Assembly: GCA_046153645.1 (NCBI GenBank)
Contig: JBJXGI010000019.1
Span: 1 to 13,503 of the forward strand
Source of the DNA: Elusimicrobiota bacterium
GTDB taxonomy: Bacteria; Elusimicrobiota; Elusimicrobia; F11
Reading direction: 5' to 3'
DNA length: 13,503 nt
The translations under genes were made by a program, and so were the position numbers. Positions 1-13,503 of the stretch are shown here, piece after piece. Each line of letters begins with the position of its first letter. Position 1 is the first letter of the stretch. The notes under the pieces were generated by a model that did not search any database, was not told the DNA's origin, and saw only the letters and a program-made list of their open reading frames with translations.

Positions 1-360
1 AGTACTAGGGCTGAGGCTAGTGGATCGGAGACAGTTATTGTTGATCCACCCATTGATTGTGAGCGAAATCAATACGTAGGTATACAGGTTAATGAATTAG
101 TGGCGGGAGATGAGTTGATTGTTACAATCTCATTGATAGGTCCGACTGGACTGTACAGTACTTATACAGCAAAAGGTGAAAAAGGACCGGCAGTAGGATC
201 CTTAGTTGCCAACTTCAAGATTGGAAATATTCCGTGCGGAGACTATAATCTCATAATTGATGAAGCAAAGCTTAATAATAAAATTTATAGTGGGAGGAAT
301 TCTGTATATCACATTGCTACGCATTACGTTCGGCTTTTAGATAAAGCGGATTTCAAATAA
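1..360 (+). CDS. 3' end of a hypothetical protein (5'-partial, beta-rich)
   Basis: Frame 1 is open from base 1 (STRAEASGSETVIVDPP...) to TAA at 358-360, so the listed 100..360 ORF is probably the tail of a longer gene. A strong hairpin follows. No family recognised. Confidence 0.6.
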   Translation, partial: STRAEASGSETVIVDPPIDCERNQYVGIQVNELVAGDELIVTISLIGPTGLYSTYTAKGEKGPAVGSLVANFKIGNIPCGDYNLIIDEAKLNNKIYSGRNSVYHIATHYVRLLDKADFK

Positions 361-611: not shown

Positions 612-930
612 CTTATCGTTACCCATAACTTTATAGAATCGAGGGAGCCGAGTGACAGAAATTGAGTGGGAGGTGAATTGAATGGCCCAACGATTAACAA
701 CACTTGTGACCCATGAATTTGATGGTATAGAGCTGGGGGATAAACGTTTGAATGAACGATGTCATGATATAGTCAAAGCCATGAGCAAGAACCCTGAGAA
801 AAGTATTCCTGAGAATTGTGAAGACTGGAGCAGTACAAAAGCAGCGTATCGTTTTTTTAGCCACGAAAATACGACCCGAGAAGTTGTGCTGGAAGCACAT
901 TTTAAACATACGAGTGAACGTTGTCGCGGA
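612..930 (+). mobile_element. Truncated IS4-family (IS50/Tn5-like) element: left end plus transposase N-terminus
   Basis: The 19-bp CTTATCGTTACCCATAACT (612-630) matches the IS50 outside end CTGACTCTTATACACAAGT at 11/19 positions. SD GGGAGGTG at 668-675, ATG at 682. The protein shows the Tn5-type DNA-binding motifs EFDGIELGDKRLNER, SIP, W...KAAYRFF and H...T.ER. No DDE domain or right end is visible. Confidence 0.8.
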
Positions 931-1245
931 CGTATCACAGATGGTGGAGATGCCGGCGACTCTCCTTATCCCGTTATTTGTGTATGGAACGGGAAGGAGA
1001 AAATACTGGAAATAATGTCCGGCGAAAACAATTTGATCATGCGTGTTGAAATTTTTAGTAGCCGCGTTAAAAATTATTTTGGCCCGCAAGTCGGATCTCG
1101 TTTTTCCGATGTATTTACTGCTGATATCCCAAGTGATTGTGAAAGTGATGGAAAATCGGTTGTATGTTCTCAGAAATTTTTTTCCCTCTTCGATATGTAT
1201 TTGAAGGGAGTTGGAATGGTAATGGCCGCGAATTACCACCGGTAG
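682..1245 (+). pseudogene. Chimeric ORF: IS50-like transposase DNA-binding domain (~aa 1-83) fused in frame to a DUF1131-like fragment
   Basis: Transposase similarity stops near RCRG (~930). The downstream sequence is unrelated to transposases. Confidence 0.7.
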
Positions 1246-1591: not shown

Positions 1592-1755
1592 CCCATGATG
1601 GGTGAAAATCATGGGGGCAAACCTTGCGAGAGCAAGGGACGGTTTTAGAAGAGAATCTCTAGAACCACATCAGGAAGGCTTTAAGTGTCTCTTGATGGGC
1701 AAAGCCACGGGCCCGATGAAGTGGATCGGGAAGCCGGGTTACCGAAGATGATGCA
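1592..1755 (+). ncRNA. c-di-GMP-I (GEMM) riboswitch-like aptamer with a 58-nt insertion
   Basis: GGCAAA-CCTTGC-GAGA-GCAAGG-GAC (1616-1640; P2 with GNRA loop), then after the insertion GCAAAGCCACGGG-CCCGAT/ATCGGG-AAGCCGGGTTACCGA (1699-1745; P3). Equivalents of the ligand-contacting G20 (1616), A47 (1701) and C92 (1742) are present. It sits in the leader of a motor-gene operon. P1 is not clearly canonical. Confidence 0.75.
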
Positions 1756-1860
1756 AAGGAGTGCTATTCATATTCAGGGTGGATATGAATAACTTCAAGC
1801 AGTGTGGGCAATGCATCATCGGTGATCCGACCGCAATAAAGGTCGAAGCTACCGGTTAGG
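1735..1860 (+). promoter_or_regulatory. Putative riboswitch expression platform
   Basis: 1812-1829 is complementary to the aptamer 3' strand 1735-1755. An internal hairpin spans 1758-1796 and a CGACC/GGTCG hairpin spans 1828-1845, just before the start region. Confidence 0.5.
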
Positions 1861-3639
1861 GTGAGAAAAATGGGTGAATGGGTGAAGCATATCGGTTGTT
1901 CTATTTGGAACTCCTTTTTGGACATGGCGGATAACGCCAGCGTCCTCTTTTCTATTTTATTCCAGCCTCTTCGTCATCCCGTCATGATGGTTTATACACT
2001 TTTGCGTTGCGACTACACCTCACCCGGTCGTCGTACCGCACTGCTCAGCCGAGGTCGGAAGGCATTACTCACCCTAATGCTTCTGACCTCGGCTATTTTT
2101 TCTTCGACCAGCAAAATGTACGCCGCCGGTGAACCCGGTGCCTTCCTTCAATGGGGAGCAGGAGCCCGCTCTCTGGGAATGGGTCGCGCTTTCTTGGCTG
2201 TTTCCGACGACGCCAGTGCAACATATTGGAATCCTGCCGCGATGGTGCAGTTACAAAGAAAAGAAATCATGGGTCTTCAAGCCACGTTGTTTGCTGAGAC
2301 CAACTATAGTTTTTTCAGTTATGTCAGCCCTGGTAAAAAAGGAGGAGCTTGGGGTTTTAATATGACGAGTTTAACTTCTGGTGGTTTTGAGAAAGTTAAA
2401 GTTAAAGTGGATCCCGCGTCTTCGCCCAGCAATCCTGATTATTTATCTGTTGAAAAAGCAGGCGCTTATGAAGTTTCTCAAAAAGCTTACACTTTCGCCT
2501 ACGGTAAACAAGTGACGAATAAATTGGCGATGGGCTTAGCATTAAAGAGACTAACCAACACGGTTGATACTTTCGCGCAATCTTTTACCGCTGTTGATGC
2601 ATCTATATTTACCAAAGTAAATCAAAATTATCGTTTTGCCTTGGCCGTTAAAAATGCGGTCGCCCAGAATCCTGGGAATTCTAATGATAAATTGCCGCTC
2701 ACTTTTCGTATTGGAAATGCTTTTTCTTTAATGAATGATCGAGTTATTTTGGCGGCTGATTTAAATTCTTCCCAAGGCAGTGGTTTTGGTTGGAATTTAG
2801 GGACAGAGTATTCGGCAAGTCGGAGAATGGCTTTTAGATTAGGACTTGAAAGTAGAGATGGTGCTATCGCTGAAACAACTGCCGGTTTTGGACTGAAGTT
2901 CAGTAATTTTAATTTGGATTTGGCTTTTGGTATTACGGAACTGGGAATGTCTCAACGATATTCCCTCTCTTGGAAATTTGGCAAAGGCGCTAAAGCCGGG
3001 CAGCAAGACGAAGCTCGTCGTCTTATTAAATCCGGAGAATCCGCTTTTGCTAAAGGGCAATATGCCCAAGCTGTGGCCAGACTTGAAGCGGCATTGGGTG
3101 TGGACCCCTCCAACAAGGAATTGCAAAGCATGGTGGCAAAACTCAACAGTATTGCCGGCTCTATTCCTGCTGCTACTGGTGATGGTGAAATTGATCGGTT
3201 GGTGAGACAAGGTGTCTCTGCCTTTGTTGGAGGAGATTTATCAACAGCTTATGATTCATTAAGAACCGCTTATGAGAAAAACCCATCCAATCAAAGCTTG
3301 CTTAATTTTACGAATCGAGTTGCTCGTCAAGCCGGTCAACCTTTGGTCGAAGCTCCTCGTGATTCCTTGTCTGGAGCGCGTTGGACCCTGGTAGACCAAA
3401 AACTTCATGACGCGCTGACGGCTATTTATGAAGGTCGTTATGACGTGGCTATTAATAAATGCGAACAAGTATTGAGAATTGATCCTAGTAACGTGACGGC
3501 CATTGGACGAATGGGCGCTTCCTTCTTCTTAATGGGCGAAAAAGATAAAGCCATTACCTTGTGGAAACGCGCTCTTGAGCTTGAGCCCAATAACCAAACC
3601 GCGATTGAATACCTTAAGCAACTAGGGGTAGAGAAGTGA
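1861..3639 (+). CDS. PorV/PorQ (FadL-like) outer-membrane beta-barrel protein with C-terminal TPR repeats
   Basis: Signal-peptide-like RGRKALLTLMLLTSAIFSSTSKMYA, hatch motif GARSLGMGRAFLAVSDDASATYWNPAA, and alternating beta-strands ending YSLSWKF. TPRs follow (GQYAQAVARLEAALGVDPSN, GRYDVAINKCEQVLRIDPSN, KAITLWKRALELEPNN). The start is uncertain (1861, 1870 or ~1984). Confidence 0.85.
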   Translation: MRKMGEWVKHIGCSIWNSFLDMADNASVLFSILFQPLRHPVMMVYTLLRCDYTSPGRRTALLSRGRKALLTLMLLTSAIFSSTSKMYAAGEPGAFLQWGAGARSLGMGRAFLAVSDDASATYWNPAAMVQLQRKEIMGLQATLFAETNYSFFSYVSPGKKGGAWGFNMTSLTSGGFEKVKVKVDPASSPSNPDYLSVEKAGAYEVSQKAYTFAYGKQVTNKLAMGLALKRLTNTVDTFAQSFTAVDASIFTKVNQNYRFALAVKNAVAQNPGNSNDKLPLTFRIGNAFSLMNDRVILAADLNSSQGSGFGWNLGTEYSASRRMAFRLGLESRDGAIAETTAGFGLKFSNFNLDLAFGITELGMSQRYSLSWKFGKGAKAGQQDEARRLIKSGESAFAKGQYAQAVARLEAALGVDPSNKELQSMVAKLNSIAGSIPAATGDGEIDRLVRQGVSAFVGGDLSTAYDSLRTAYEKNPSNQSLLNFTNRVARQAGQPLVEAPRDSLSGARWTLVDQKLHDALTAIYEGRYDVAINKCEQVLRIDPSNVTAIGRMGASFFLMGEKDKAITLWKRALELEPNNQTAIEYLKQLGVEK

Positions 3640-3668
3640 TCTTTAAATTGATTGGTATTGATAAAAAG

Positions 3669-3759
3669 TCGTCACCCCGGCATGTCGTTAGCCGGGGTCC
3701 AGGATTAATTTTTTTTCAATTGAAAAGGAGCTGGATCCCGGCTTGCGCCGGGATGACGA
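3669..3759. repeat. REP-like composite palindrome (GTCA.CCCGG...GGTCCA / TGGATCCCGG...GGATGAC type)
   Basis: Terminal inverted repeats TCGTCACCCCGGC / GCCGGGATGACGA enclose two hairpins, ACCCCGGC..GCCGGGGT and ATCCCGGC..GCCGGGAT. The element is intergenic. Confidence 0.8.
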
Positions 3760-3771
3760 AAAATTAAAAGT

Positions 3772-5718
3772 ATGCGAAAACTCGAGATGGAAATTAATTG
3801 TAACTCCGCTTATACTCAGAATATGGTGTGTTCTAATTTTCGTTTTATATTTTTAACGGCTTTTTTTTCATGGGTTTCTGTTTTTTCTCCAATGATAGTT
3901 GAGTTAAAAGCCGTGGGGACAGAGATGCCTGATCCTATGGCTCTTGATCAAGAGCGCCGAATTAAAGAAGACACCGAACAAAAAGCGCAGGAGATCTGCG
4001 ATAGCATTCTTGGTAAAGGGCAGGCCAGTGTTTTGGCCAATATTGAATTGGGTATTGAAACCAACCGGAAGGGTGGGGCGGCGTTGGACCAAAAAAGAGA
4101 GTCTAAATCCGGATTGGGGGATGAGAATTTTATCCTTCCCTGGGTTCCCGCGCCAAAATCGGTTTCTAAAGAAGAGCAACCCAAAGATAGCAACGTTCAA
4201 ACGCAAGCGGCTCAACAAGAATCGGTTGATGTGAGAACAGTTGTGAAGCGGTTTGATATTACAGTTATTCATGATGACACAATTCCAGAATTAAAGGTGA
4301 CGTTAGTTAAAGACGCGCTGACTTCTGCTTTTGATCGTTATAAAAGTATCTTGAAGCTTTTTTTTAAACCAACTTCTTTTTCGAAAGAAGGACCCATAAG
4401 AACATCCGACGTTGTTAAGAAAAACTTTATTGATTCACTTAATCTAAAAACAATTTTGTTTCTCATTCTTCTTATGATTCTTTTCATGGTGCTCAAATTT
4501 TTCTTTGGGCCTTTGGCTGACTTTATGAAAAATTACATAGATGGAATGAAAGAACAATCAAAATCTAAAGTGGAAATGGAAAATAAGAGTGAAGCAGAAA
4601 ACGAAACAGATGCCGCTAATGAAGATGAGACTCTTTCGGAAGAAGAACAACAACGTTTGGCAGAAGAACAGGCCGCCATGGAGGCGGCATTATTAGCTGA
4701 GGAGGAAGTTATGGAAAAATTTGTTCCCTTTAAATACATTACTGATGAAAATGTGAAGCAATTGGCTTATTTGCTTCATCATGAAGAGCCTTGGATTGTG
4801 GCCATGGTGATCTCTTATCTTTCAGCTGAACATGGTTACAAAGTCATGGAAGCTCTTCCTTCTGATCTTCAAGCAAAAGTGGCTTTGGAAACGGCCATGT
4901 ATCGACAAACTTCTTTGGAGCAGGTTCAGGCGGTTGATTTAGATATTAAAGAAAAGATTGATTTTGTGGTCGGTGGTTTGGATAAGTTGGTTCTTATTTT
5001 AGAGAGTTCCGATCGGTTTGCCAGAGATAATATTTTGGAATATCTTAAAAATGAAAAGCCCGCAATTTATGAACGCGTGAGAGAAAATATTCTTTTGTTT
5101 GAAGATATTGTTAGTTTCCCTCGTCCAGCGATGCAAGTTGTTGTTCGGGAAGTAAAAACCGAGCAGTTGGGCGTGGCATTAAGAGGATGTAGCCCAGAAC
5201 TACAGCAGAAGTTCATGGAAAATATGTCACAGGGAGCGGCGGCTTTACTTAAAGAAGAAATGGAATTCGGTCGCCCCGTTACAGATGAACAAATTGAAGA
5301 AGAGCGTCGAAAAATTGTTGATCTCATTAAGTCGATGGAAAAAGATGGGAAGTTGAGTTTTAGGCAAAAAGGGAAAGGGTCTAGTCTTGAAGCGATGGAT
5401 ATGGGGAGTGATATGTCAGGTCTTCGTGGCATGGTTGGTAAATCGGCCAACCCAGAAGCGGCCTTGGCTTCTTATCAAGCGGGGGTTCAGGCGGGGGAAG
5501 CAGGTGACATTGAAGAGTCCATTCGGCAATTTGAAGCCAGCATAAAACAGAATTCTCAACTTGCCCCCGCTCATCAGGCTCTGGCCAACGCCTATTATTC
5601 TGTCGGGAGATATCAAGAAGCCCTGGCAAGTTACGATATGTTGCTTAAACTAGAACCAAATGACGAGTTGCAAGTTTGGGTAGACCAGTTACGAGCCACT
5701 ACTTCCGCAGCTGCATAA
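3772..5718 (+). CDS. Fused rotor protein: signal/TM, FliF RBM3-like periplasmic domain, TM, acidic linker, FliG middle and C-terminal domains, TPR
   Basis: FliG-M (aa 319-396: PFKYI...LLHHEEPWIVAMVISYL...LP), GG linker, and FliG-C (LLFEDI...REV...ALRG...NMSQGAAALLKEEMEFGRPV...IV...MEKDGKL). TM at ~aa 227-248. FliF-like segments EQKAQEICDSILGKGQASVLANIEL and VVKRFDITVIHD. TPR at ~aa 564-630. Confidence 0.85.
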   Translation: MRKLEMEINCNSAYTQNMVCSNFRFIFLTAFFSWVSVFSPMIVELKAVGTEMPDPMALDQERRIKEDTEQKAQEICDSILGKGQASVLANIELGIETNRKGGAALDQKRESKSGLGDENFILPWVPAPKSVSKEEQPKDSNVQTQAAQQESVDVRTVVKRFDITVIHDDTIPELKVTLVKDALTSAFDRYKSILKLFFKPTSFSKEGPIRTSDVVKKNFIDSLNLKTILFLILLMILFMVLKFFFGPLADFMKNYIDGMKEQSKSKVEMENKSEAENETDAANEDETLSEEEQQRLAEEQAAMEAALLAEEEVMEKFVPFKYITDENVKQLAYLLHHEEPWIVAMVISYLSAEHGYKVMEALPSDLQAKVALETAMYRQTSLEQVQAVDLDIKEKIDFVVGGLDKLVLILESSDRFARDNILEYLKNEKPAIYERVRENILLFEDIVSFPRPAMQVVVREVKTEQLGVALRGCSPELQQKFMENMSQGAAALLKEEMEFGRPVTDEQIEEERRKIVDLIKSMEKDGKLSFRQKGKGSSLEAMDMGSDMSGLRGMVGKSANPEAALASYQAGVQAGEAGDIEESIRQFEASIKQNSQLAPAHQALANAYYSVGRYQEALASYDMLLKLEPNDELQVWVDQLRATTSAAA

Positions 5719-5728
5719 AGAGAGGGTT

Positions 5729-7480
5729 ATGACGGCCAAAGAAATATTTAGAAAAAAAACGGATCATTTGATTCGTTGGGCCAAACGTTTTGACAAAGCC
5801 GTAGAATCGGAATTGGCGAAACTGGAACTTTTATTTCAACAGGCCACTGTTGAAACTGAGAAAGAAAAAAACTCTCAACTTCAAAAGATTCAAGAAGAAG
5901 AAATAAGACTGAAGGGTTTGATTGAGCAGTCAGGAAAAGAATATTCTCAAGATAAGTATAAATTAGAGCGTGATGTAAGTAATTCAAAAAACGATGTTGA
6001 AAGAACCCAAGCCAGTTTAAACTCCATCCATAAAGAATTTGAAACTGAATTTAATCGAATACATCAAGAGAAGTTAAACATTCAATTAACCATGGAACGC
6101 CAAAAAAGCGCCCTCACGGAACTTTATCAGGAAAAAAAGAGATCCCTAACTGTGGCCAGAGCAAAATTACTTCAGGAAGCAAGGCAAACTGAAGAAAACT
6201 ATAAAAAAGTCAAACAAAAGTCAGATGAAGATCAGTGTGCTATTAAAACTGAAATTGGAACCAAGTTAAACATTATTCAGGATCAGGCTGAATCCAAAAA
6301 ACAGGGTTGGGATATGGCGCTTGAGAAAATGCGCAAAGAATTGGCGGCCATTCATCAAGAAAAAGACGATTTACAGAAAAAACTATTGAGTATTCGCGAG
6401 GAAAAAGAAAAAGAGCTTGAGGATGTAAAAGTAAGTCTCAAATTGTCTAAAGATCAGTTAGAAATTGACAAGGTGACGTTGATTGAAAAAGCTGAAGAAG
6501 AAGAACGCCTTTGCGCAAAAGAAGTTGCAGAGTTACAAAAGAAAATTGAGCATGACGAAAAAGCCTTGGAAATATTAATTTTAGAATCAGAAAAAAACAA
6601 AAAAGAATTAGAAGAAGGTTATCATCGAGAAGAAAGTATTTTGAAAGAGTCTGTTCAGGCCGAATCTCAAAAGAGAGACTTCGAGCAAAAGCTATTTGAG
6701 CAGGAAAAATTAACGAAAGAAAAAGAATTGCAACGCTTAAAAGAAGAATACGATAAAAGAAAGTGGCAATGGGATAATCAAGTTCGAACTCTCATGATGC
6801 AGAAAAGTGTTTTGGATGCGCAGTACGACGCAGATCGATTGAAAGTAGATCGGGAAGCGCGTCTTCAGGTAAGAGGTTTAGAAGCAAAGCGTGGTGAATT
6901 AAGACAGCGGTTATCTGAGCTGCAAAATAGAAAAGATACCATCAAAGAAACAGGACAAAAAGAGCAAGATCTGATTCAGCAACGTTGGAAATGGCGACGT
7001 GAGCGGCTGTGGGGAATGTGGCAAAATCGGCTTCAGGTGCTAAAAAAGGAAAGATTGGTTTTACAAGAACAAATTCAAGATATACAGGAGAAATTTTCTA
7101 AGGAAAGTTCATCATCTGCCGAGATGGAACAACGAGAAGAAAAAAGAATCGATGATCTTCGAGAATTTGTTTTGCAGATGAGTGAAAAAAACCGAGGTCA
7201 AAATAAACAAAAAGGAATTCAAAATGAGCTTGAAAAAACACGGTTAATCGCTCAAATTAAGGAATGTGAAGCTTTGGTTGAGAATTGGGTTGAGCGCATG
7301 AAAATGACACAAGATGACGTTATGAAAGCCAATCAGGGTTTAGCTCAGGAATTAAACTATTTAGACAAATGGTATAGAGAAGAAGAAAAAGAAACACAAT
7401 TATTTCTTCATGAATTTCAAAATGCTTTATCAATTTTAAACCAAGCGCTTTCCAGTATCACTTTGAAAGATGCCGCTTGA
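5729..7480 (+). CDS. Long coiled-coil protein of unknown function (583 aa)
   Basis: E/K/Q/L-rich heptad pattern throughout with no proline. No signal peptide, TM or NTPase motif. SD-like AGAGAGGG upstream; 10 nt after the previous stop. Confidence 0.85.
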   Translation: MTAKEIFRKKTDHLIRWAKRFDKAVESELAKLELLFQQATVETEKEKNSQLQKIQEEEIRLKGLIEQSGKEYSQDKYKLERDVSNSKNDVERTQASLNSIHKEFETEFNRIHQEKLNIQLTMERQKSALTELYQEKKRSLTVARAKLLQEARQTEENYKKVKQKSDEDQCAIKTEIGTKLNIIQDQAESKKQGWDMALEKMRKELAAIHQEKDDLQKKLLSIREEKEKELEDVKVSLKLSKDQLEIDKVTLIEKAEEEERLCAKEVAELQKKIEHDEKALEILILESEKNKKELEEGYHREESILKESVQAESQKRDFEQKLFEQEKLTKEKELQRLKEEYDKRKWQWDNQVRTLMMQKSVLDAQYDADRLKVDREARLQVRGLEAKRGELRQRLSELQNRKDTIKETGQKEQDLIQQRWKWRRERLWGMWQNRLQVLKKERLVLQEQIQDIQEKFSKESSSSAEMEQREEKRIDDLREFVLQMSEKNRGQNKQKGIQNELEKTRLIAQIKECEALVENWVERMKMTQDDVMKANQGLAQELNYLDKWYREEEKETQLFLHEFQNALSILNQALSSITLKDAA

Positions 7481-7490
7481 ATGAGAATTT

Positions 7491-10400
7491 ATGGAAACCC
7501 CTGAAGAAAAGAAACCATCACAGCCTCCCATGAATAAACCGCCGGTTCCTCCTCCGGGGATTAAGAAACCGTCTAATTTGCCGAAAGGACCAGTCCCTCC
7601 GAGAGGTCAAACTCCTGGAATGCCGAGAATTCCTGGGATGTCCGGTGGAGGCGCAGGGGCACCAGGGTTAACTCCACCCATGAAACCACCAATGAACCTG
7701 CCGGGAAATAAGCCACCCATTTCTGCTCAGCCTGGCATGCCGCCATTGCCAGGAATGAACAAACCTCCTGTTCAAGGAGCGCACCCATCAGTCCCATCGC
7801 CATCAATACAAGGCCCTTCGATACCGACAACACCATTTGAGAATAAATTAAATGAAGCAGAGTCCCATAAGTCTGATTTGGAAACTAAAGTCACAGATCT
7901 TGAAAAAAGATTAATGGAAGAAAAGGAAAAAGTCTTATTGGCTTCTTTGAGGACGAAAGAGGAAGAAGCTGTTTCAGCAAAGGTTGAGTCCTCAATTAAA
8001 GAGATTCAAGATAAATTAAGACGGGAAAAACGAGAACAAGAACTTGAAGAAAATAAGAAGAAAGCAGAAACACGTCTTTTGGAAGTAGAACGAAGATTAG
8101 CCGAAGAGAGAGAAGCGTGGGTTACGACCCTTAAAAATCAAATCGGCCAGCGAGACCAAATATCTCAAGAAATGGAGACTCATTTCTCGGCTCGACTTAA
8201 GGATTTGGAGTACCGTTGGGCGCAAGAAAAGTCTTCTCTTGAAGCGAATGTTCGCGATAGAGAATCTGAAATTATTCGCATTCGACATGAGATGTCGTTA
8301 AAAGCCGAACAAGAAAAAGCTTTTTGGGAAGACCGATTAAAGGCGGTGTCTGGTGAAAAAGAGCGGATCGAAAGAGACTTCGAACGACTCAAAGATAAAT
8401 TTCACTCTGAAAAAGAACAGTTATTTTCAGAGCGCCAAGTTCTAAAAGATCAAACCCAGAAGCTGGAATCATCGCTTCGTTTTTTTGAAGAACAATCAAG
8501 GGTTGAAAAGTCCATTATTCAGAAAGAATCTGATGGAAAGTTTTCTCTTCTCAAACAGCAGTCCGAACATGAAAAGTCCTTGTTAGAAAAACAAATCTCT
8601 CAAATAAATGAACAGTTGCATGGTTTTCAAATTGAGATAAAAGAGAAATCAAAAATTATTGAAAATCTTCAGTCCTCAAATGTGCATTTAAATTCTCAGG
8701 TCCTCAGTCAGCTTCATCAGTTTGAAACACAGGTGAAAGAAAAAGATCGGCAAGTTGAAGGGTTAGTAACTCAGTTGAATCAGATTAAAAGATCTCTCGA
8801 AGACGCGTTGGCTAAAAATAAGACTGATGAGTTTACAGTTCAAAGTCAATCCAAAGAAATGAGCGACTTGAGATCAAAATTGCATATGTTAGAGGATGGT
8901 TTTTCCCGAGAACTTGAAAAAGCCAGTCAAATTGAAAAAGAAAAAGTTATTGCCGCTCAAGAAAAAATAATTTTTATCAAAGCTGAATTAGATAATTTAA
9001 AACATGCTTCTTCTGATAGAGAAAGAGAGTCAACTCTTAAAATAAGTAAATACGAAGATAAAATTCAGAATCTAACCGATGAAGTTCTCCGCAGCAAAGA
9101 AGGGGTAAAAGAACAAATTTCAAGAATTCAGAATGAATATGAATCTCGCTTGAAAGTTTTGCAATCTCGGTTGGATCATTATGATGTGAACGCACATCGA
9201 GAATATGAACAGGCGAGAGAAAAAGTGAAAACAGAATTGATTGAATTGCAAAATCAAGTGGAAGCGTACAAGAAAAAAGAAGAGGAAATTTCTAAAACAC
9301 ACCAATCCTTCATATCTCAAATTGACGAATTGAAAGATTCTTCAGCGAAAATAAGTACTGAAAAGAATAATTTGGAAAAGCAACTTGAAAGTCTTAAGGT
9401 AGAGTGGAAAGAAGGTCAATGGGAGTTGGAAAATAGGGTTCGTGAGTTGAGTGATCAATTAAGAGAAGCACAGGTGAAAGATCAGCATCAGGAAGATATT
9501 AAAATAAATTTAGAACAAGAACTGAAACAACGACAAGGGGCCTTGGAATATTTGGGGGGAACTCTAAAAGATAAAAAAGAAGAATTGGAAGAAAAAAACC
9601 ATCAAATAGAAGATATCGAAAGGAAATTGGCTCAGGAGAAAGTATCAAAAGAGTCAATTGAAAAAGAATTGAGACAACGAATCTCTGATGTAGAAAACTC
9701 GGAAGAAAAATTGAAAGATAAGAAAGCCGAGATTGATGCTTTAAAAAATAAATTATTTGAAAGCCAGCATCAGATAGAACACGAGCAAAGTGTCGCTCAG
9801 TTGTTAAGAAGAGAAATTGAAGGCTTTAAGAATCTTTCTCATGCCAATGGATTAGATACGTTGAGGGAATTGCAAACACAATTAAATGAGAAAAATAAGG
9901 AAATAGAACGGGTCAAAGAGTCTTTACAAGAATATAAAAACTTAGAGTCCGATATTGAAAAGAAAGAAATTCTTTTTAAAGACAAAGAAAAAGTTTTTAA
10001 ACAGCTTCTCAGTGACAAAGAAGAAACGATTTCAGATTTAAAAGCCAGGGTTCATTTGGTTGAAAAAAAACTAGATGAAACAAGTGGAAATGTTGAGCGA
10101 ATAAAAGAAGAAGCTAGAAATGAAGTTGATAAAGCCCGTCTTTTAGTAAAGAAAGATTTTGATCGAGTGCTGCAATTAAAAGAAGAAGAGAGTGTTCAGA
10201 AGTTAAATCAACTTCAAAAAATGGCTAAAGATGAAATAACAAAATTTGAACAAAACCATAAGGCACTGTTAGAAAATATTCGTCAGAAACATGCTGAAGA
10301 TCTCGAGAAAGTTTCAAGACAAAGTGCCGGTTCTGATTCTGCGCCATCTGAGGCTCTGTTGCAACAAATGAAATCTCAGATTGAAATGGAATTTATGAAT

Positions 10401-10733
10401 CGCTTAAAAGAACAAGAGACAGAATTTGAAGCGCAAATTGTTAAATCTAAAGACGAGGCCAAAAAAGAAATGGAGCGTCTTAAGTGGGAGGTCGGTCAAT
10501 CTAAAGAAGAGGTAAAAAAAGCAAAAGAGGCGCGCTTAAGTATTGAACGAGAGGCTCAAGAGCTTTTGCAACAGGCTGAAAATCATTATCGCAATGAACT
10601 TAATAAATTTAAAAAAGAGACTCAAGATCAAGAAAAGAAAAACGCCGGAGTCTTTACAAAGCTCGGCCGACTATTGGATACGCCTATTGTGGATACTAAA
10701 AAAGATAAAGATATGAAGGATAAGGCGGCTTGA
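7491..10733 (+). CDS. Very long coiled-coil protein with Pro/Gly-rich N-terminus (1080 aa)
   Basis: aa ~1-115 are Pro/Gly/Met-rich and low in complexity, followed by ~930 aa of heptad-like E/K/Q-rich sequence. The C-terminus carries amphipathic GVFTKLGRLL. No Walker motifs. Confidence 0.85.
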   Translation: METPEEKKPSQPPMNKPPVPPPGIKKPSNLPKGPVPPRGQTPGMPRIPGMSGGGAGAPGLTPPMKPPMNLPGNKPPISAQPGMPPLPGMNKPPVQGAHPSVPSPSIQGPSIPTTPFENKLNEAESHKSDLETKVTDLEKRLMEEKEKVLLASLRTKEEEAVSAKVESSIKEIQDKLRREKREQELEENKKKAETRLLEVERRLAEEREAWVTTLKNQIGQRDQISQEMETHFSARLKDLEYRWAQEKSSLEANVRDRESEIIRIRHEMSLKAEQEKAFWEDRLKAVSGEKERIERDFERLKDKFHSEKEQLFSERQVLKDQTQKLESSLRFFEEQSRVEKSIIQKESDGKFSLLKQQSEHEKSLLEKQISQINEQLHGFQIEIKEKSKIIENLQSSNVHLNSQVLSQLHQFETQVKEKDRQVEGLVTQLNQIKRSLEDALAKNKTDEFTVQSQSKEMSDLRSKLHMLEDGFSRELEKASQIEKEKVIAAQEKIIFIKAELDNLKHASSDRERESTLKISKYEDKIQNLTDEVLRSKEGVKEQISRIQNEYESRLKVLQSRLDHYDVNAHREYEQAREKVKTELIELQNQVEAYKKKEEEISKTHQSFISQIDELKDSSAKISTEKNNLEKQLESLKVEWKEGQWELENRVRELSDQLREAQVKDQHQEDIKINLEQELKQRQGALEYLGGTLKDKKEELEEKNHQIEDIERKLAQEKVSKESIEKELRQRISDVENSEEKLKDKKAEIDALKNKLFESQHQIEHEQSVAQLLRREIEGFKNLSHANGLDTLRELQTQLNEKNKEIERVKESLQEYKNLESDIEKKEILFKDKEKVFKQLLSDKEETISDLKARVHLVEKKLDETSGNVERIKEEARNEVDKARLLVKKDFDRVLQLKEEESVQKLNQLQKMAKDEITKFEQNHKALLENIRQKHAEDLEKVSRQSAGSDSAPSEALLQQMKSQIEMEFMNRLKEQETEFEAQIVKSKDEAKKEMERLKWEVGQSKEEVKKAKEARLSIEREAQELLQQAENHYRNELNKFKKETQDQEKKNAGVFTKLGRLLDTPIVDTKKDKDMKDKAA

Positions 10734-10743
10734 GAGTTTCGTT

Positions 10744-11001
10744 ATGATTTTATTAAAGCGCTTGAATGGAACACAATTTAATTTAAATGCTGAATTGATT
10801 GAACAAATTGAAAGTACCCCTGACACGGTCATTACTTTGACAACAGGCAATAACATTGTCGTTTTGGATAAGCGTGAAGACGTGATAGAGAAAATAGTCG
10901 AATATAGAAGAAAAGTTAATTTGGATGAGTCGTCATTCCTGAATGTCTCTACCTGCCCGCAAGTTGGCAGGCGGGTCGGGAATCCAAACTGTCAAAAATA
11001 G
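10744..11001 (+). CDS. flbD: FlbD/SwrD family protein; last ~24 aa are encoded by a palindromic repeat
   Basis: MILLKRLNG...LNAELIEQIESTPDTVITLTTG...V...E.VIEKIVEYRR is the family signature. The gene is in its usual position immediately upstream of motAB. Confidence 0.9.
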   Translation: MILLKRLNGTQFNLNAELIEQIESTPDTVITLTTGNNIVVLDKREDVIEKIVEYRRKVNLDESSFLNVSTCPQVGRRVGNPNCQK

Positions 11002-11035
11002 ACCCCCGACTAAGACATTCGGGGGTGACGACTCA
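10926..11035. repeat. REP-like palindromic element overlapping the flbD 3' end, with a nested small palindrome
   Basis: 23-bp inverted repeats TGAGTCGTCATTCCTGAATGTCT (10926-10948) and AGACATTCGGGGGTGACGACTCA (11013-11035) with three G-U-type differences. Internal CCTGCC..GGCAGG at 10952-10971. Confidence 0.8.
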
Positions 11036-11086
11036 GATGCTTAAATTCACTTAAGAGGCTAAAGAGATACATACAGAGGTAATGAA

Positions 11087-11896
11087 ATGGATCTAGCAAC
11101 AATATTTGGAATTTTAATTGGTCTTTTGATGGTTTTTTTAACCATTTTTCATGCGGAAGGGTTAAAAGGTTTCGCGCCCTTTTTAAATGCTGAAGCCGTT
11201 CTTATTGTTATGGGAGGAACTTTTTGCGCGCTTTTAGTTAATTATCCGCTCTCTCAGATATTGGGGATTTTTAAGGTCCTCAAAAAAGTCATGAGTAATC
11301 ATATTGTTGATACTTCTGAGATTGTGACCACCTTTGTTAAGTTTTCAAAGAAAGCTCGAACCGATGGTTTTTTGGCTTTGCAGGAAGAAGTGAAAAACAC
11401 AAAAGACGATTTTTTAAAAAGAGGAGTTCAGCTTGTTATTGATGGCGCCGATAAAGAATTTATTCAAAATATGATGGAAACTGAAATCGGTTTTATTCGA
11501 GAACGCCATAAATTGGGACAAGAAATTTTTAATTCTTTAGGGACCTACGCACCCGCTTTTGGAATTATCGGAACTATTCTTGGAATGATTATGATGATGA
11601 CCTCTCTCGATGACGTGGCGCAAGTCCCACGGAGAATGGCGCTTTGTTTGTCCGCGGCTTTTTTCGGTTTGGCCTCAGGGTATTTACTTTTTCTTCCTAT
11701 GGCGGGAAAGTTAAAACGCCGATCTGAAGAAGAGCTTCTCATTAAAGAAATTGTTATTCGAGGGGTTTTATTGCTTCAAACGGGGGCCGCTCCGTCACTT
11801 ATGGAATCTAATTTGAAAGCTTATTTAGATCCTACAACAAGGAACCTCATTCGAACCGGAACCATTGCGGGAGATGACAAAGCCAATGCCGCTTAA
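11087..11896 (+). CDS. motA: MotA/PomA-family stator A subunit
   Basis: MDLATIFG, LIVMGGT, ARTDGFLAL, FLKRGVQLVIDG, APAFGIIGTILG and FLPMAGKLK motifs; four hydrophobic segments. SD-like AGAGGT upstream. Confidence 0.95.
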   Translation: MDLATIFGILIGLLMVFLTIFHAEGLKGFAPFLNAEAVLIVMGGTFCALLVNYPLSQILGIFKVLKKVMSNHIVDTSEIVTTFVKFSKKARTDGFLALQEEVKNTKDDFLKRGVQLVIDGADKEFIQNMMETEIGFIRERHKLGQEIFNSLGTYAPAFGIIGTILGMIMMMTSLDDVAQVPRRMALCLSAAFFGLASGYLLFLPMAGKLKRRSEEELLIKEIVIRGVLLLQTGAAPSLMESNLKAYLDPTTRNLIRTGTIAGDDKANAA

Positions 11897-12563
11897 ATCC
11901 AAAGACATGATTGAAATGAGTGACCCCCGTGTTTGTCAGGTGGGGCATCCGGCGCCAGGCTGGATGGTTAATTACGCTGATTTAATGACGGAGTTGGTTT
12001 GCTTCTATTTAATTTTATATGCCTTATCCGCTTCGTTATCTAAGCCTATTCAAGAAGCAAAAAAAGAAGTTGAAGAAACCATGAAACAAGAAGAAGTGGC
12101 CGGCGATGTCAAAATCACCAAAGATGGTTTGGTTATTTCTCTTCAAGAACAAGGGTACAATGTTTTTTTTGAAAGCGGTTCCTCTGAAGTTACTGATCAA
12201 ATGAAAAAGATTTTAGATGGTTTGGCTCCCACGTTTCAAAAATTAGGACAAAAAAAACACGAGATGATTGTTGAAGGGCACACCGATGATATTCCTATTA
12301 GCACGGTACGGTTTCCTTCCAATTGGGAGTTGTCTACTGCAAGAGCCACTTCAGTTGTTTTATATTTGATTAATAAACATGGTTATCCTCCCACTCATAT
12401 TGGCGCAATTGGGTATGGTGAAAACAAGAGTTTGTCGCGTCTTCCTGACGAAGATGCAGGTACCTGGCGCGCGCGGAATCGAAGAGTTGTGTTCGTTATT
12501 AAAAATCCTGAACCTGAAAGTAACCCTGAAAATAAAAGCGAAACAAAAAAAGACGAGCACTAA
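11865..12563 (+). CDS. motB: MotB-family stator B subunit with OmpA-like peptidoglycan-binding domain
   Basis: TM motif WMVNYADLMT with the conserved Asp, then VEGHTD, FPSNWELSTARA, GYGE and RNRRV. It overlaps the motA end; the true start may be the ATG at 11874 or 11886. Confidence 0.95.
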   Translation: MREMTKPMPLKSKDMIEMSDPRVCQVGHPAPGWMVNYADLMTELVCFYLILYALSASLSKPIQEAKKEVEETMKQEEVAGDVKITKDGLVISLQEQGYNVFFESGSSEVTDQMKKILDGLAPTFQKLGQKKHEMIVEGHTDDIPISTVRFPSNWELSTARATSVVLYLINKHGYPPTHIGAIGYGENKSLSRLPDEDAGTWRARNRRVVFVIKNPEPESNPENKSETKKDEH

Positions 12564-12654
12564 TAAAAACACCTCTAAAACACAGCTTTATTTTCATTCC
12601 CTTGTCTTCGGTGAAAATTCATCTCTTATTCATCAGAATTTTACTGCGCTCTCC

Positions 12655-12669: not shown

Positions 12670-13503
12670 ATGAAACTCTCTTTAAAGAAATCTTTAGCGC
12701 TTTTTTTATCCCTGATTTATTTCTTAAACCAAGGCGTTTTTGCCTCATTAGCCGAGTCCCGCTTTTGGGAAGAGCGGCGCCTGGCTTCAATGAGTGCCGC
12801 TTTAAAACCCAACCCTCTTTTAACAAACCTGCCAGCGATTAATAATCATCTTGAGGTTGCCTCGAAATGGAGTGATTCTAAGGAAATAAAAAAGTGGCCG
12901 AAACCGCACCAAGACGCGCTCGCAGCTATTTCTCTTCGTCACGGAAGCATTCAAGATATCTATTCAACATCGTCCCCCCAGCCTGTTTCTCCGGTGGTTC
13001 TAATTCAAGATATTCATTTGAATGCAGAGGCTCAAGAAAATATTGCTTCGCTTTTAAACGGGTTAATTGAGAAAAAACAGGCAGGCCTTGTGGGTGTTGA
13101 AGGGGCCTTTGACACATTTGATTTTAAACCGTTTAAAAAATTCTCTCATCATCCCCTAGCAAAAGAAATCACAGACGCCTTTTTGAAAGCTCAACTCTTA
13201 GCCGCTCCGTCTTATGTGGGAATAATTAATCCCACTGAAACATCTCTGTTCATGGGAATTGATGACAAAGAACATTACGACTTGAACGTGAAGGCATACT
13301 TAGAAACCAGAACGCTCAAGAAAAAAGTGATCAAAGAAATTGAGCAAGAAAAACACGTTCTGGAAGAAAAGAAAAAAACAATTTTTTCAAAAGAATTAGC
13401 CGAGTTTGATGCAAAGAGAGAATCCTATGAAAGGGGAACGTTGGGGCTTGGGGAATATGTGGATATACTTTTCAACGACCCCTCCCCTCTCCCGTTGTAC
13501 GGG
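12670..13503 (+). CDS. 3'-partial secreted protein, absent from the ORF track; resembles the N-terminal domain of large Elusimicrobiota/Omnitrophota proteins
   Basis: Open for 278 codons to the window edge: MKLSLKKSLALFLSLIYFLNQGVFA (signal peptide), ESRFWEERR, VVLIQDIHLNAEAQENIA, LVGVEGA, MGIDDKEHYDLNVKAY. Confidence 0.85.
   Translation, partial: MKLSLKKSLALFLSLIYFLNQGVFASLAESRFWEERRLASMSAALKPNPLLTNLPAINNHLEVASKWSDSKEIKKWPKPHQDALAAISLRHGSIQDIYSTSSPQPVSPVVLIQDIHLNAEAQENIASLLNGLIEKKQAGLVGVEGAFDTFDFKPFKKFSHHPLAKEITDAFLKAQLLAAPSYVGIINPTETSLFMGIDDKEHYDLNVKAYLETRTLKKKVIKEIEQEKHVLEEKKKTIFSKELAEFDAKRESYERGTLGLGEYVDILFNDPSPLPLYG

Follow-up and report, generated by a model that had tools for sequence, protein, structure and literature searches.

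The window analyzed here, a stretch of 13,503 nucleotides from an Elusimicrobiota bacterium, harbors a single co-directional cluster on the + strand (1605-12563), which runs from an aptamer through genes for an outer-membrane barrel with a TPR tail, a fusion of FliF (RBM3) and FliG (middle and C-terminal domains, MC) with TPRs, two giant coiled-coil proteins and FlbD to MotA and MotB (Table 1). This arrangement had been proposed by a first-pass annotation and was recovered by open reading frame (ORF) and family calls, and the coordinates agree with its description of three 10-nt junctions and a motA/motB overlap. The gaps at 5718/5729, 7480/7491 and 10733/10744 (ORF coordinates) are each exactly 10 nt, while the overlap amounts to 32 nt if motB starts at TTG 11865 and to 11 nt if it starts at ATG 11886. 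The latter is the likely start on sequence grounds, and it gives MPLKSKD, the same N-terminus as in the orthologue of the closest relative. Rod, hook, filament, export, fliM/N and che families, which had been described as missing from the window, were likewise not found by a Pfam search among its ten ORFs. The cluster holds no protein with a T9SS-type C-terminal domain (CTD), and the closest relative has no conserved counterpart of the secreted ORF downstream of it (12670-13503); both points weigh against the reading proposed below.

Table 1. Features of the cluster, in window coordinates
Feature	Position	Strand	Basis
Leader RNA, divergent c-di-GMP-I-class aptamer	1605..1750	+	Rfam match 1667-1746, P2-like GNRA hairpin 1614-1643
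PorV/PorQ-family outer-membrane barrel with C-terminal TPR	1861..3639	+	NF033709, PDB PorV match, TPR families
Intergenic spacer, structured	3640..3771	+	Fold energy, repeated hairpin
Rotor protein: FliF-RBM3-like, FliG MC and TPR	3772..5718	+	Pfam, profile and structure matches
Coiled-coil protein 1, 583 aa	5729..7480	+	Sequence; without Pfam family
Coiled-coil protein 2, 1080 aa	7491..10733	+	Sequence; weak SMC coiled-coil match
FlbD, small stator-associated protein	10744..11001	+	PF06289, 91.7 bits
MotA, stator A subunit, FlbD-linked clade	11087..11896	+	PF01618, 90.6 bits
MotB, stator B subunit	11865..12563	+	MotB_plug 37.9 bits, OmpA 55 bits

The cluster was compared with a phylum sample of 201 genomes, in which 72 match the fusion at E <= 1e-10 and 52 carry a full-length orthologue (E <= 1e-60); twenty loci were chosen from these 52 carriers. 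At Rfam gathering thresholds nothing in the window is matched. Under an E-value threshold, RF01051 (c-di-GMP-I) matches 1667-1746 at 32.8 bits against a gathering score of 35 (E 1.5e-4), and a piece of RF03167, corresponding to a P2-like hairpin, gives a second match at 1618-1641. The region 1605-1750 folds at -55.7 kcal/mol (z -4.4), and the same two-part layout is seen in the closest relative, where it is accompanied by a compensatory inserted hairpin. A c-di-GMP-I-class riboswitch scoring at or above gathering occupies the orthologous position in 18 of the 20 relatives' loci, and the other c-di-GMP-I riboswitch of the genome precedes genes for a PilZ protein, a PorV-like barrel and a CTD protein of 1694 aa. 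Judged from these matches, the operon is headed by a c-di-GMP-I-class leader, of which the window's own copy is divergent and below gathering. The structured spacer (-54.2 kcal/mol, z -6.4) probably has no functional role in the system, and its 3' hairpin recurs on two other contigs (C99 and C98) as a dispersed GC-rich hairpin repeat.

The barrel passes the cut-off of the NCBIfam PorV/PorQ family (NF033709, 108.4 bits versus 90) and scores only 36 bits against PorV proper (NF033710, cut-off 250). In a profile search of the PDB, PorV 6h3i_F (E 2.1e-12) was the sole non-TPR match among the best 60 of 126 matches. Pfam places TPR families in residues 390-590, which belong to a C-terminal, presumably periplasmic domain of about 215 aa. 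Translation probably begins at ATG 1870 or ATG 1984, of which the closest relative shares the former, with MGEWVK as the N-terminus.

The fusion is constructed from a first transmembrane helix, a periplasmic FliF-RBM3-like domain (residues ~50-205), a second transmembrane helix, an acidic linker, the FliG middle and C-terminal domains (FliG_M 48.3 bits, FliG_C 106.9 bits; PDB 1lkv, E 3.4e-58) and cytoplasmic TPRs, whereas FliG_N was not found by Pfam. Within the periplasmic domain, a disordered insert (102-149) holds a conserved LPxxPxPK motif. This periplasmic part aligns in hhalign with the phylum's FliF at 93.8% probability (E 1.7e-7, 137 columns, FliF profile positions 242-397), and it matches SpoIIIAG 5wc3 (E 7e-4) and residues 220-288 of FliF 6scn (E 0.033). 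The AF2 model of the domain adopts an alpha-beta-(insert)-beta-alpha-beta fold with pLDDT >90, and its residues 50-204 superpose on the MS ring 8z5v_A with Z 11.9 and an rmsd of 10.8 Å. By such remote matches the periplasmic part is assigned to the RBM3 region of FliF, and with FliG MC behind it the first-pass call of a FliF/FliG fusion was right. The modelled FliG_C resembles both 1qc7_B (Z 15.5, rmsd 1.4 Å) and the stator-bound complex 8ucs_H (TM 0.93, rmsd 1.3 Å), and the acidic pair of the torque helix, the GG hinge and the LFED motif are retained. The residue pairs of FliG and MotA, including E. coli R281 and R297, were taken from PMC12505986. At the R281 position, Gly stands in eight of the nine fusion orthologues aligned and Arg in the genome's own flagellar FliG, while none of the nine has Arg at the R297 position. 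In this alignment the FliG residues that would pair with MotA are thus changed, which counts against a rotor-stator reading.

Coiled-coil proteins 1 and 2 are rich in Glu, Lys, Gln and Leu, and neither matched a Pfam family; protein 2 has a weak SMC coiled-coil match (29 bits). Both are predicted to be cytoplasmic. Neither carries a signal peptide or a CTD, and therefore they are not secreted cargo and lend no support to the secretion of large proteins that the first-pass annotation had listed among possible outputs. Protein 1 has a clear orthologue in only one of the 20 loci, that of the closest relative (3e-157). Protein 2 is composed of a Pro-rich N-terminus, which recurs in all 11 orthologues listed, a long coiled coil and a short C-terminal FWxxLNxPVIEI-like motif, which is present in eight of those 11 and degenerate in the window. 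None of its 38 homologues is informatively named, some being auto-labelled "chromosome segregation ATPase", and the organism names listed are all Elusimicrobia.

MotA has its best NCBIfam matches to MotP/MotA/PomA (196-229 bits, all under the equivalog cut-offs) and retains the basic loop residue and both channel prolines; in MotB, the channel Asp lies in NYADLMT, where the transmembrane helix begins, and the protein also has a plug and an OmpA-type peptidoglycan-binding domain. Three MotA clades were resolved in a tree, one flagellum-linked (97/100), one FlbD-linked (99/98) and one paralogue-linked, and the window's MotA sits in the FlbD-linked clade, apart from the flagellum-linked one. FlbD, for which the window copy is the single match in the genome, occurs in 61 of the 201 genomes and 48 of the 52 fusion carriers, and in only two of the six FlhA-positive genomes; all four flagellated genomes without the fusion lack it.

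Flagellar markers are scarce in the phylum: FlhA, flagellin and FliMN_C are each found in six of the 201 genomes and N-terminal FliF in seven, the same six genomes holding all four and one more (G123) FliF only. No match for FlhA, N-terminal FliF, flagellin or FliM/N was obtained in 50 of the 52 fusion carriers, although the genomes of the sample are related to one another and such co-occurrence counts overstate independence for this reason. In the closest relative (G148; 99% complete, 68% identity), the operon is complete and all four markers are missing. Only two genomes, the window's own and G064, combine the fusion with a flagellum. The first-pass description of a machine without a flagellum is accordingly wrong for the window's genome, where a full flagellar operon lies on contig C58, and apt for those 50 carriers. 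That operon includes its own FliF, FliG, MotA/MotB and flagellins (MotA: PRK09109, 285 bits versus a cut-off of 237), so the window genes are not the only FliF, FliG and stator of this flagellum.

Gene order is conserved to different degrees. In 19 of the 20 loci the fusion gene is immediately preceded by the barrel gene, and a homologue of coiled-coil protein 2 is present in 16, so the linkage claimed for these genes stood up to the synteny comparison. For flbD-motAB the linkage is not supported: no more than 24 of the 52 carriers have these genes in cis (seven of the 20 fetched loci include them), and in another 24 they are unlinked and lie among housekeeping genes. The comparison upholds the rotor-stator core as a unit of its own, conserved together with the PorV-like barrel, a coiled-coil protein and the c-di-GMP leader. 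On present trees and profile searches, the stator genes and the rotor gene form their own lineages, mainly in genomes without a flagellar match.

The relatives' operons also contain surface-protein genes, a point in favor of a link between the machine and surface proteins. Small CTD-only proteins lead the operon in six loci, and secreted fn3/Ig proteins are encoded in cis in eight of 20, five of which extend past the end of the fetched sequence; in three of these eight (L025, L029 and L030) a CHU_C CTD could be recognized. PorP/SprF-LysM barrels occur in two loci, and in the closest relative an ORF spanning 6632 aa or more, with a CTD-like domain at its end, lies just upstream of the leader.

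Among known systems, the core of the flagellar motor is homologous in RBM3, the FliG middle and C-terminal domains, MotA, MotB (plug, Asp and OmpA domain) and FlbD, and a stator pushing on FliG_C would be the expected working mode. Unlike the flagellar rotor, that of the cluster lacks RBM1/RBM2 as well as FliG_N, has lost the Arg at R281 as described above and occurs naturally as one polypeptide chain with a tail of TPRs, whereas the FliF-FliG fusions of the flagellar motor that have been solved (PDB 8z4d) were engineered; it is accompanied by a PorV-like barrel and giant coiled coils, and FliM/FliN, export gate, rod, hook and filament were not found in 50 of 52 carriers. With the Bacteroidota T9SS/gliding apparatus (GldLM/PorLM, PorV, PorQ-PorZ, SprF-SprB), the cluster shares the PorV/PorQ-family barrel, the CTD proteins and PorP/SprF-like barrels in relatives' operons and, putatively, the coupling of outer-membrane proteins to a 5:2 motor powered by ions. 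It differs in that the motor is MotAB on a FliG-type partner, while GldLM has a periplasmic shaft, in the TPR tail of the barrel and in a phylum outside Bacteroidota. The Agl-Glt gliding machinery of Myxococcus, which serves surface movement, combines the MotAB-family AglRQS motor with TPR connectors, outer-membrane barrels and the long cytoplasmic coiled-coil protein AglZ, all of which are echoed here by description only, with no homology seen between the other parts; the Agl motor belongs to the TolQR/ExbBD type and is not known to act on a FliG partner.

An Atlas search returned clusters with FliG_C, FliG_M and FliF_C also from Pseudomonadota, Balneolota and Fidelibacterota. A second cluster in the window's genome, on C40, looks closer to a five-gene form (FliF/FliG fusion, outer-membrane barrel, TPR lipoprotein, MotA, MotB), relative to which the window has its TPRs fused to barrel and rotor and has coiled coils, FlbD and a c-di-GMP riboswitch added.

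Four other explanations were weighed. The cluster could be a T9SS-like secretion or attachment engine, in which MotAB-FliFG replaces the GldLM/PorLM motor and powers the export or attachment of CTD proteins via outer-membrane parts resembling PorV and SprA, as opposed to moving these proteins along the surface. The barrel's family score and its match to solved PorV, the CTD mini-proteins, fn3/Ig proteins and PorP/SprF-like barrels in cis in relatives, and the presence of about 13 PorV-like barrels in the genome, several beside CTD ORFs, all favor such an engine. However, SprA_N (PF14349) has no match in this genome and merely weak ones in 27 of 201, including seven of the 63 f12-family genomes searched, a family in which the fusion had just one weak match; the long periplasmic GldM shaft has no counterpart, and the window's operon is devoid of a CTD protein, which leaves this explanation unlikely. 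GldM itself (TIGR03517) is not matched in the genome and equally in none of the control genomes, so that its absence says nothing either way. A non-rotating, PMF-dependent tether or force transducer of the Tol-Pal or Ton kind, which maintains or senses the outer membrane and in which FliG only docks MotA, would accord with the trans-envelope logic of inner-membrane motor, periplasmic domain, TPR and outer-membrane protein, with the altered basic residues of the torque helix and with the many non-rotary outputs that 5:2 motors drive, as stated in PMC12204202. It is decidedly doubtful in view of the retained ring-building RBM3 fold, a FliG_C nearly identical in fold to the stator-bound domain and three further MotA/TolQ/ExbB-family loci in the genome (208-243 aa frames) that look like TolQ/ExbB.

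It is very improbable that the genes are accessories of the true flagellum, that is, a second stator set and a FliG paralogue tuning or localizing its motor. The complete flagellar operon in the genome would be served by them, it has fliL directly after flgE and no flbD, the genome's only FlbD being the window copy, and the flgE-motA-motB stator of G121 is sister to the FlbD-linked MotA clade. Against this, 50 of 52 carriers have no match for any of the four flagellar markers, the four flagellated genomes without the fusion are also without FlbD, C58 has its own MotA/MotB near the flagellar genes, and the fusion is devoid of FliG_N, so the usual docking on FliF is impossible. The rarity of flagella in the phylum and the flagellar origin of the parts might instead suggest a decaying, functionless remnant of an ancestral gene set, a reading that is close to refuted because of conservation: the ORFs are intact across 52 genomes of many families at 30-68% identity, gene order and riboswitch are kept, and 27 columns of a 45-sequence alignment are invariant.

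Since the operon is found mostly in bacteria without a flagellum, it gives the impression of an envelope machine, driven by ions, that has so far gone undescribed. No published description of the system was found in the literature searched, and orphan motAB, flbD and fliG genes are remarked on in one preprint. That the cluster encodes a non-flagellar rotor-stator module is proposed with good confidence; that it constitutes a stand-alone envelope machine, derived from the flagellar motor, typical of Elusimicrobiota and outside this organism's flagellum, is considered fairly probable. In such a machine, RBM3 domains would build a ring or array at the inner membrane, and MotA5B2 units, anchored to peptidoglycan through MotB and powered by ion flow, would push on its FliG C-terminal domains. 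The movement or force would then be relayed outward via the periplasmic domain and reach the PorV-like barrel at its TPR tail. The cytoplasmic TPRs and giant coiled coils may act as a scaffold, the role of FliM/FliN in the flagellum. The likeliest output, suggested only tentatively, would be the moving, presenting or anchoring of surface proteins with T9SS-type CTDs; if this is true, the machine would allow these bacteria to move on surfaces or to adhere in a controlled manner, with c-di-GMP setting the response.

All features between ~1605 and 12563 lie on the + strand of contig C81, whose entire 13,503 bases make up the window and which belongs to a 2.63 Mb genome of 99.7% completeness (G000) that is assigned to Elusimicrobiota by the names carried by homologous proteins and loci. 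The three 10-nt junctions and the motA/motB overlap reported in the first-pass annotation were borne out by the ORF coordinates collected in the table, and no + strand terminator-like site was detected within 3600-12600 by a terminator scan whose overall counts were no better than those of shuffles.

Features of the window and of two further clusters on other contigs of the same genome (CC1 and CC2, coiled-coil proteins 1 and 2; CTD, T9SS-type C-terminal domain)
Feature	Position	Strand	Basis or remark
5'-open ORF without family, before the transposase fragment	1-360	+	outside operon
187-aa ORF with the transposase DNA-binding N-terminus alone	682-1245	+	Tnp_DNA_bind, 73.7 bits; outside operon
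Structured leader	~1605-1750	+	Rfam match below gathering, and folding
PorV/PorQ-family barrel with TPR tail	1861-3639	+	family profiles
Membrane protein with FliG_M, FliG_C and TPR	3772-5718	+	family profiles
CC1, 583 aa, without Pfam family, Glu/Lys/Gln/Leu-rich by eye	5729-7480	+	
CC2, 1080 aa, without Pfam family, Glu/Lys/Gln/Leu-rich by eye	7491-10733	+	
FlbD	10744-11001	+	family profile
MotA	11087-11896	+	family profile
MotB	11865-12563	+	family profile; 5' end overlaps motA
Secreted ORF with signal peptide, 3'-truncated, without Pfam or NCBIfam family	12670-13503	+	outside operon
Second riboswitch operon	C30:10806-20282 (L140, L138)	-	FecR-domain protein; uncharacterized 403-aa protein; 1694-aa CarboxypepD_reg and T9SS-type CTD protein; PorV-like barrel; PilZ protein
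Paralogous rotor-stator cluster	C40, L005:6383-12203	-	TPR protein, 315 aa; FliF_C, FliG_M and FliG_C fusion, 575 aa; MotA; two MotB/OmpA proteins; REC-GGDEF response regulator

In the ORFs of the FliG-containing membrane protein, CC1, CC2 and MotA, the last two codons before the stop encode Ala-Ala (GCN GCN; 5707-5731, 7469-7493, 10722-10746 and 11885-11909), and the next ATG stands exactly 10 nt on in three of the four, an ATG at 11907 being likewise found 10 nt downstream after motA. This pattern, which is absent from the five relatives compared, might locally signal translational coupling. In the operon's two longer intergenic gaps (3640-3771 and 11002-11036) there are GC-rich hairpins belonging to short repeats that recur on other contigs (C98 and C99; C10, C34 and C74), and the former gap folds at -54.2 kcal/mol (z -6.4). 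The ORF downstream of motB was rejected as a member of the system, having no family and not being conserved in the closest relative (G148), whose motB is followed instead by an ORF that by eye resembles an NAD-dependent sugar dehydratase.

The membrane protein, referred to here as the fusion, is a FliF lacking RBM1 and RBM2 joined to a FliG lacking its N domain and followed by TPR, as follows from the combined matches to FliG_MC and RBM3. FliG was defined by TIGR00207 or by PF14842, PF14841 and PF01706 for its N, M and C domains, respectively. FliG_M (48.3 bits) and FliG_C (106.9 bits) both scored above cut-off in the fusion, and no Pfam match was obtained there for FliG_N, the domain which binds the FliF C-terminus; the score against TIGR00207 was 119 bits, below the cut-off of 226.7. 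A profile built from 45 family members matched T. maritima FliG-MC (1lkv) at E 3.4e-58, and the FliG_C of the AF2 model (mean pLDDT 77.9 for the fusion) lies within 1.3-1.4 A of solved FliG_C structures, including the MotAB-bound copy in 8ucs.

No match to RBM1-RBM2 (PF01514) was found in the fusion, the sole match of the genome being on C58, the contig with the flagellar genes, and PF08345 itself matched only the paralogue on C40. The region of PF08345, the ring-building RBM3 domain, was nevertheless recognized in the fusion by several routes. The N-terminal 300 residues (21 orthologues) aligned with FliF of the phylum in hhalign at 93.8% probability (E 1.7e-7, 137 columns), the match stopping just before the second membrane helix of FliF, and the best PDB sequence matches of the N-terminal region were SpoIIIAG (E 7e-4) and FliF residues 220-288. 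Moreover, the Atlas search returned PF08345 clusters both by features and by structure, and the AF2 model predicted an alpha-beta-(disordered insert)-beta-alpha-beta topology with pLDDT > 90. In the structural search (VIA) with the whole model, whose list is dominated by TPR and FliG, the C34 MS ring 8z5v_A was matched over residues 50-204 at rank 49 (Z 11.9; rmsd 10.8 A, inflated by the insert) as the only match outside FliG and TPR among the best 50. The first-pass designation of a FliF/FliG fusion was thus correct, FliG_MC being identified by profile and model, and RBM3 by hhalign, PDB, Atlas, AF2 and structural search.

The torque helix appears to be altered in part. According to a recent survey of MotAB evolution, the residues of E. 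coli FliG that pair with MotA are R281, D288/D289 and R297 (PMC12505986). With these numbers assigned by eye through the T. maritima FliG alignment, the acidic pair is retained as Glu/Asp in the fusion, while the R281 position is occupied by Gly in eight of nine aligned fusion orthologues (Arg in the FliG of the flagellum of G000) and the R297 position by Arg in none of the nine. A co-variation of charges between MotA and FliG was considered and dropped, since the MotA position corresponding to E. coli E98 holds Gln or Glu in FlbD-linked and flagellum-linked clades alike.

The assertion that the machine operates without a flagellum fails for G000 itself. The search of the genome for the flagellar set located it on C58, which harbors flgC, fliE, fliF, fliG, fliH, fliI, fliJ, fliK, flgD, flgE, fliL, fliM, fliN, fliO, fliP, fliQ, fliR, flhB and flhA, two flagellin genes, and, ~8 kb upstream of the flagellar genes, a stator of its own with a MotA above the NCBIfam cut-off followed by MotB. 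An accessory role to the flagellum is an unlikely rival explanation, and the phylum gives a different picture. In a sample of 201 genomes, 72 matched the fusion at E <= 1e-10 and 52 were counted as carrying a full-length orthologue (E <= 1e-60), these genomes being mutually related, so that counts of co-occurrence are not independent events. FlhA, the FliF N-terminal part, flagellin and FliMN_C each turned up in 6 or 7 of the 201, essentially the same six genomes, and in 50 of the 52 carriers none of FlhA, the FliF N-terminal part, flagellin and FliM/N was detected. Both systems occur together in G000 and G064 only, and FlbD was not found in the four flagellated genomes without the fusion. At the phylum level, the cluster is thereby shown to be independent of the flagellum.

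Fusions of the FliF/FliG type number up to four per genome in the phylum. The one on C40, which matches PF08345 at E 1.5e-6, belongs to a paralogous cluster at which no riboswitch was found, so that G000, with a flagellum, the window cluster and the C40 cluster, offers a natural three-way comparison.

The stator of the window is of the flagellar type, in that MotA contains a MotA_ExbB channel domain with the conserved prolines, and MotB contains the plug, the channel Asp and an OmpA domain. The window MotA falls below the cut-offs of the NCBIfam equivalogs MotP, MotA and PomA (best 229 versus 394 bits), and it is therefore a divergent member of the family. FlbD (PF06289) scored 91.7 bits against a cut-off of 24.7, and it is present as a single copy per genome in 61 of the 201 genomes and in 48 of the 52 carriers, the four carriers without it having genome completeness of 78-96%. 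In a MotA tree of 19 sequences, from which one duplicate row was left out and in which a long-branch TolQ-like outgroup was kept, a flagellum-linked clade (97/100) and a FlbD-linked clade including the window MotA (99/98) were recovered alongside unresolved paralogue-linked sequences. The sister of the FlbD-linked clade was a flgE-motA-motB stator, a position which fits a descent of the FlbD-linked stator from a flagellar stator.

The barrel matched NF033709, the PorV/PorQ family, at 108.4 bits (cut-off 90) over profile positions 6-326 of 326, and PorV in the PDB at E 2.1e-12, the sole non-TPR match among the 60 matches listed; it stayed well below the cut-off of NF033710, the equivalog for PorV proper (36 versus 250 bits). 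As for the sprA and gldLM genes that had been suggested as a check, no SprA_N (PF14349) match was obtained in G000, with weak matches in 27 of the 201 genomes, and no GldM (TIGR03517) match was obtained in G000 or in the control genomes. About 13 PorV-like barrel genes occur in G000 (17 matches on 14 contigs); several immediately follow a small Por_Secre_tail ORF or the CTD-bearing end of a large protein (C20, C33 and C43).

T9SS-type proteins are frequent in the operons of the relatives. At the operon start of six loci there is a 129-158-aa protein with little beyond a T9SS-type sorting domain, and a secreted fn3/Ig protein was found in 8 of 20 loci, five of the eight running off the fetched DNA; a CHU_C C-terminal domain was seen on those of L025, L029 and L030. 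In addition, two loci contain PorP/SprF-LysM barrels, and a single locus encodes a REC-GGDEF regulator. In G148 (C77:3400-23299; L151 and L014), a 5'-open ORF of at least 6632 aa, which ends in a FlgD_ig/CTD-like domain, stops 250 nt short of the riboswitch that leads the orthologous operon, and the corresponding side of the window is occupied by an IS remnant and the contig end instead. An orthologue of this putative giant adhesin in G000 was sought and dropped, only a 30-bit CTD match on C43 being available. The only other c-di-GMP-I riboswitch of G000 (50.9 bits) heads the C30 operon. From the operon leaders and the C30 operon, the pairing of a PorV-like barrel with a CTD protein emerges as a putatively c-di-GMP-controlled theme in this organism.

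No Rfam match at the gathering threshold exists anywhere in the window. With an E-value threshold, c-di-GMP-I (RF01051) was matched at 1667-1746 with 32.8 bits, short of the 35 bits set for gathering. Separately from this main match, 1618-1641 forms a canonical P2-type hairpin, and the stretch 1605-1750 folds at z = -4.4. The leader of G148 displays the same split layout together with a compensatory inserted hairpin and reaches 38.4 bits, above gathering. Of 20 orthologous loci, each from a different genome, 18 have directly upstream of the operon an aptamer of the c-di-GMP-I or c-di-GMP-I-GGC class that reaches the gathering score (37.5-84 bits, or 60.7-72.9 bits for the GGC variant), five loci bearing tandem aptamers, and none was found in L017 and L029. 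Owing to these position-matched aptamers, assignment of the window leader as a divergent, putative c-di-GMP-I-class aptamer is well supported by position. Pairing of the aptamer 3' strand with the terminator region in full-length folds of L030 and L031, two of five relatives with an intrinsic terminator, suggests a possible OFF switch; in the other three the terminator forms either way, and the window leader has no recognizable terminator.

The linkage emphasized in the first-pass annotation holds for the barrel and CC2 genes in most of the relatives' loci compared. Among 20 loci picked from the 52 carriers, the fusion gene is directly preceded by the barrel gene in 19 and accompanied by a CC2 homologue in 16, which, along with the aptamer leaders, shows that the linkage of the cluster to the barrel, one coiled-coil protein and the leader is conserved. 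The flbD-motA-motB genes lie within the fetched stretch in 7 of the 20 loci, and in 24 of all 52 carriers flbD is co-directional and no more than 20 kb downstream; in another 24 it is located elsewhere, and in the remaining 4 it was not found. When unlinked, flbD-motA-motB is flanked by housekeeping genes, and the search for extra partners there was abandoned, as the neighbors scanned in 10 loci were housekeeping or unrelated genes (for instance cysS, SpoU methylase and pyruvate phosphate dikinase). As seen in L141-L148 and L017:16845-18782, the pyruvate phosphate dikinase gene follows flbD-motA-motB in at least 6 of the 10 unlinked loci and also occurs near the linked genes in G064, an adjacency that looks like an old chromosomal neighborhood and not a functional link. 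The giant proteins of the relatives are devoid of signal peptides and consist of E, K, Q, L, R, D and A to 61-72%, one type having a TPR-like motif at its end and the other a Pro-rich N-terminus plus a short conserved C-terminal motif; judged by these sequence features, they look like a cytoplasmic scaffold rather than cargo.

With homology of all parts established, a mechanism may be sketched in which RBM3 would build a ring or array, MotAB would exert torque or force on FliG_C, TPR contacts would pass the force on to the barrel, and the output would act on CTD-bearing surface proteins. The boldest version, to which we assign only a slim chance, is that the cluster constitutes a bacterial engine of a third kind for gliding or surface transport, switched by c-di-GMP. 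Peptidoglycan-anchored MotAB units would serve as pinions on the FliG domains of membrane-embedded carriers, which TPR contacts with giant cytoplasmic coiled-coil filaments would string into a ring or moving belt, and each carrier would drag a PorV-like barrel, through a periplasmic RBM3-TPR contact, and with the barrel move a giant CTD-anchored adhesin over the cell surface. Less probable rivals to the rotor-stator mechanism are a secretion engine and a static tether and, less probable still, the flagellar accessory mentioned above and a decaying remnant, the last being opposed by the conserved linkage across relatives.

FliG and flagellar-type MotAB are customarily treated as flagellum-specific. 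Free-living Elusimicrobiota that lack structural genes of the flagellum are noted, in a preprint on magnetotactic members of the phylum, to possess motAB, flbD and fliG homologues of unclear role, and the fusion, operon, barrel and riboswitch are not described in its available part (10.1101/2022.07.08.499144). In the accessible text of the MotAB evolution survey, which places "flagellar ion transporters" in one clade apart from non-flagellar 5:2 motors, none of the terms Elusimicrobi-, FlbD and TPR occurs (PMC12505986). No published description of this system was found in the literature searched.

A flagellar-type stator, its FlbD partner and a FliF-FliG rotor have presumably been kept for another job across a mostly flagellum-less phylum. 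If the gliding engine were real, it would provide directed movement for Elusimicrobiota that have no flagellum, among them the magnetosome-bearing ones described as without flagella, and the torque interface of the flagellum would be shown to operate in another setting. More generally, a module functioning as a motor would represent a new output for the best-studied bacterial rotary machine, would be relevant to the origin or re-use of the flagellar motor, and could explain movement or the handling of giant adhesins in flagellum-less, free-living Elusimicrobiota.
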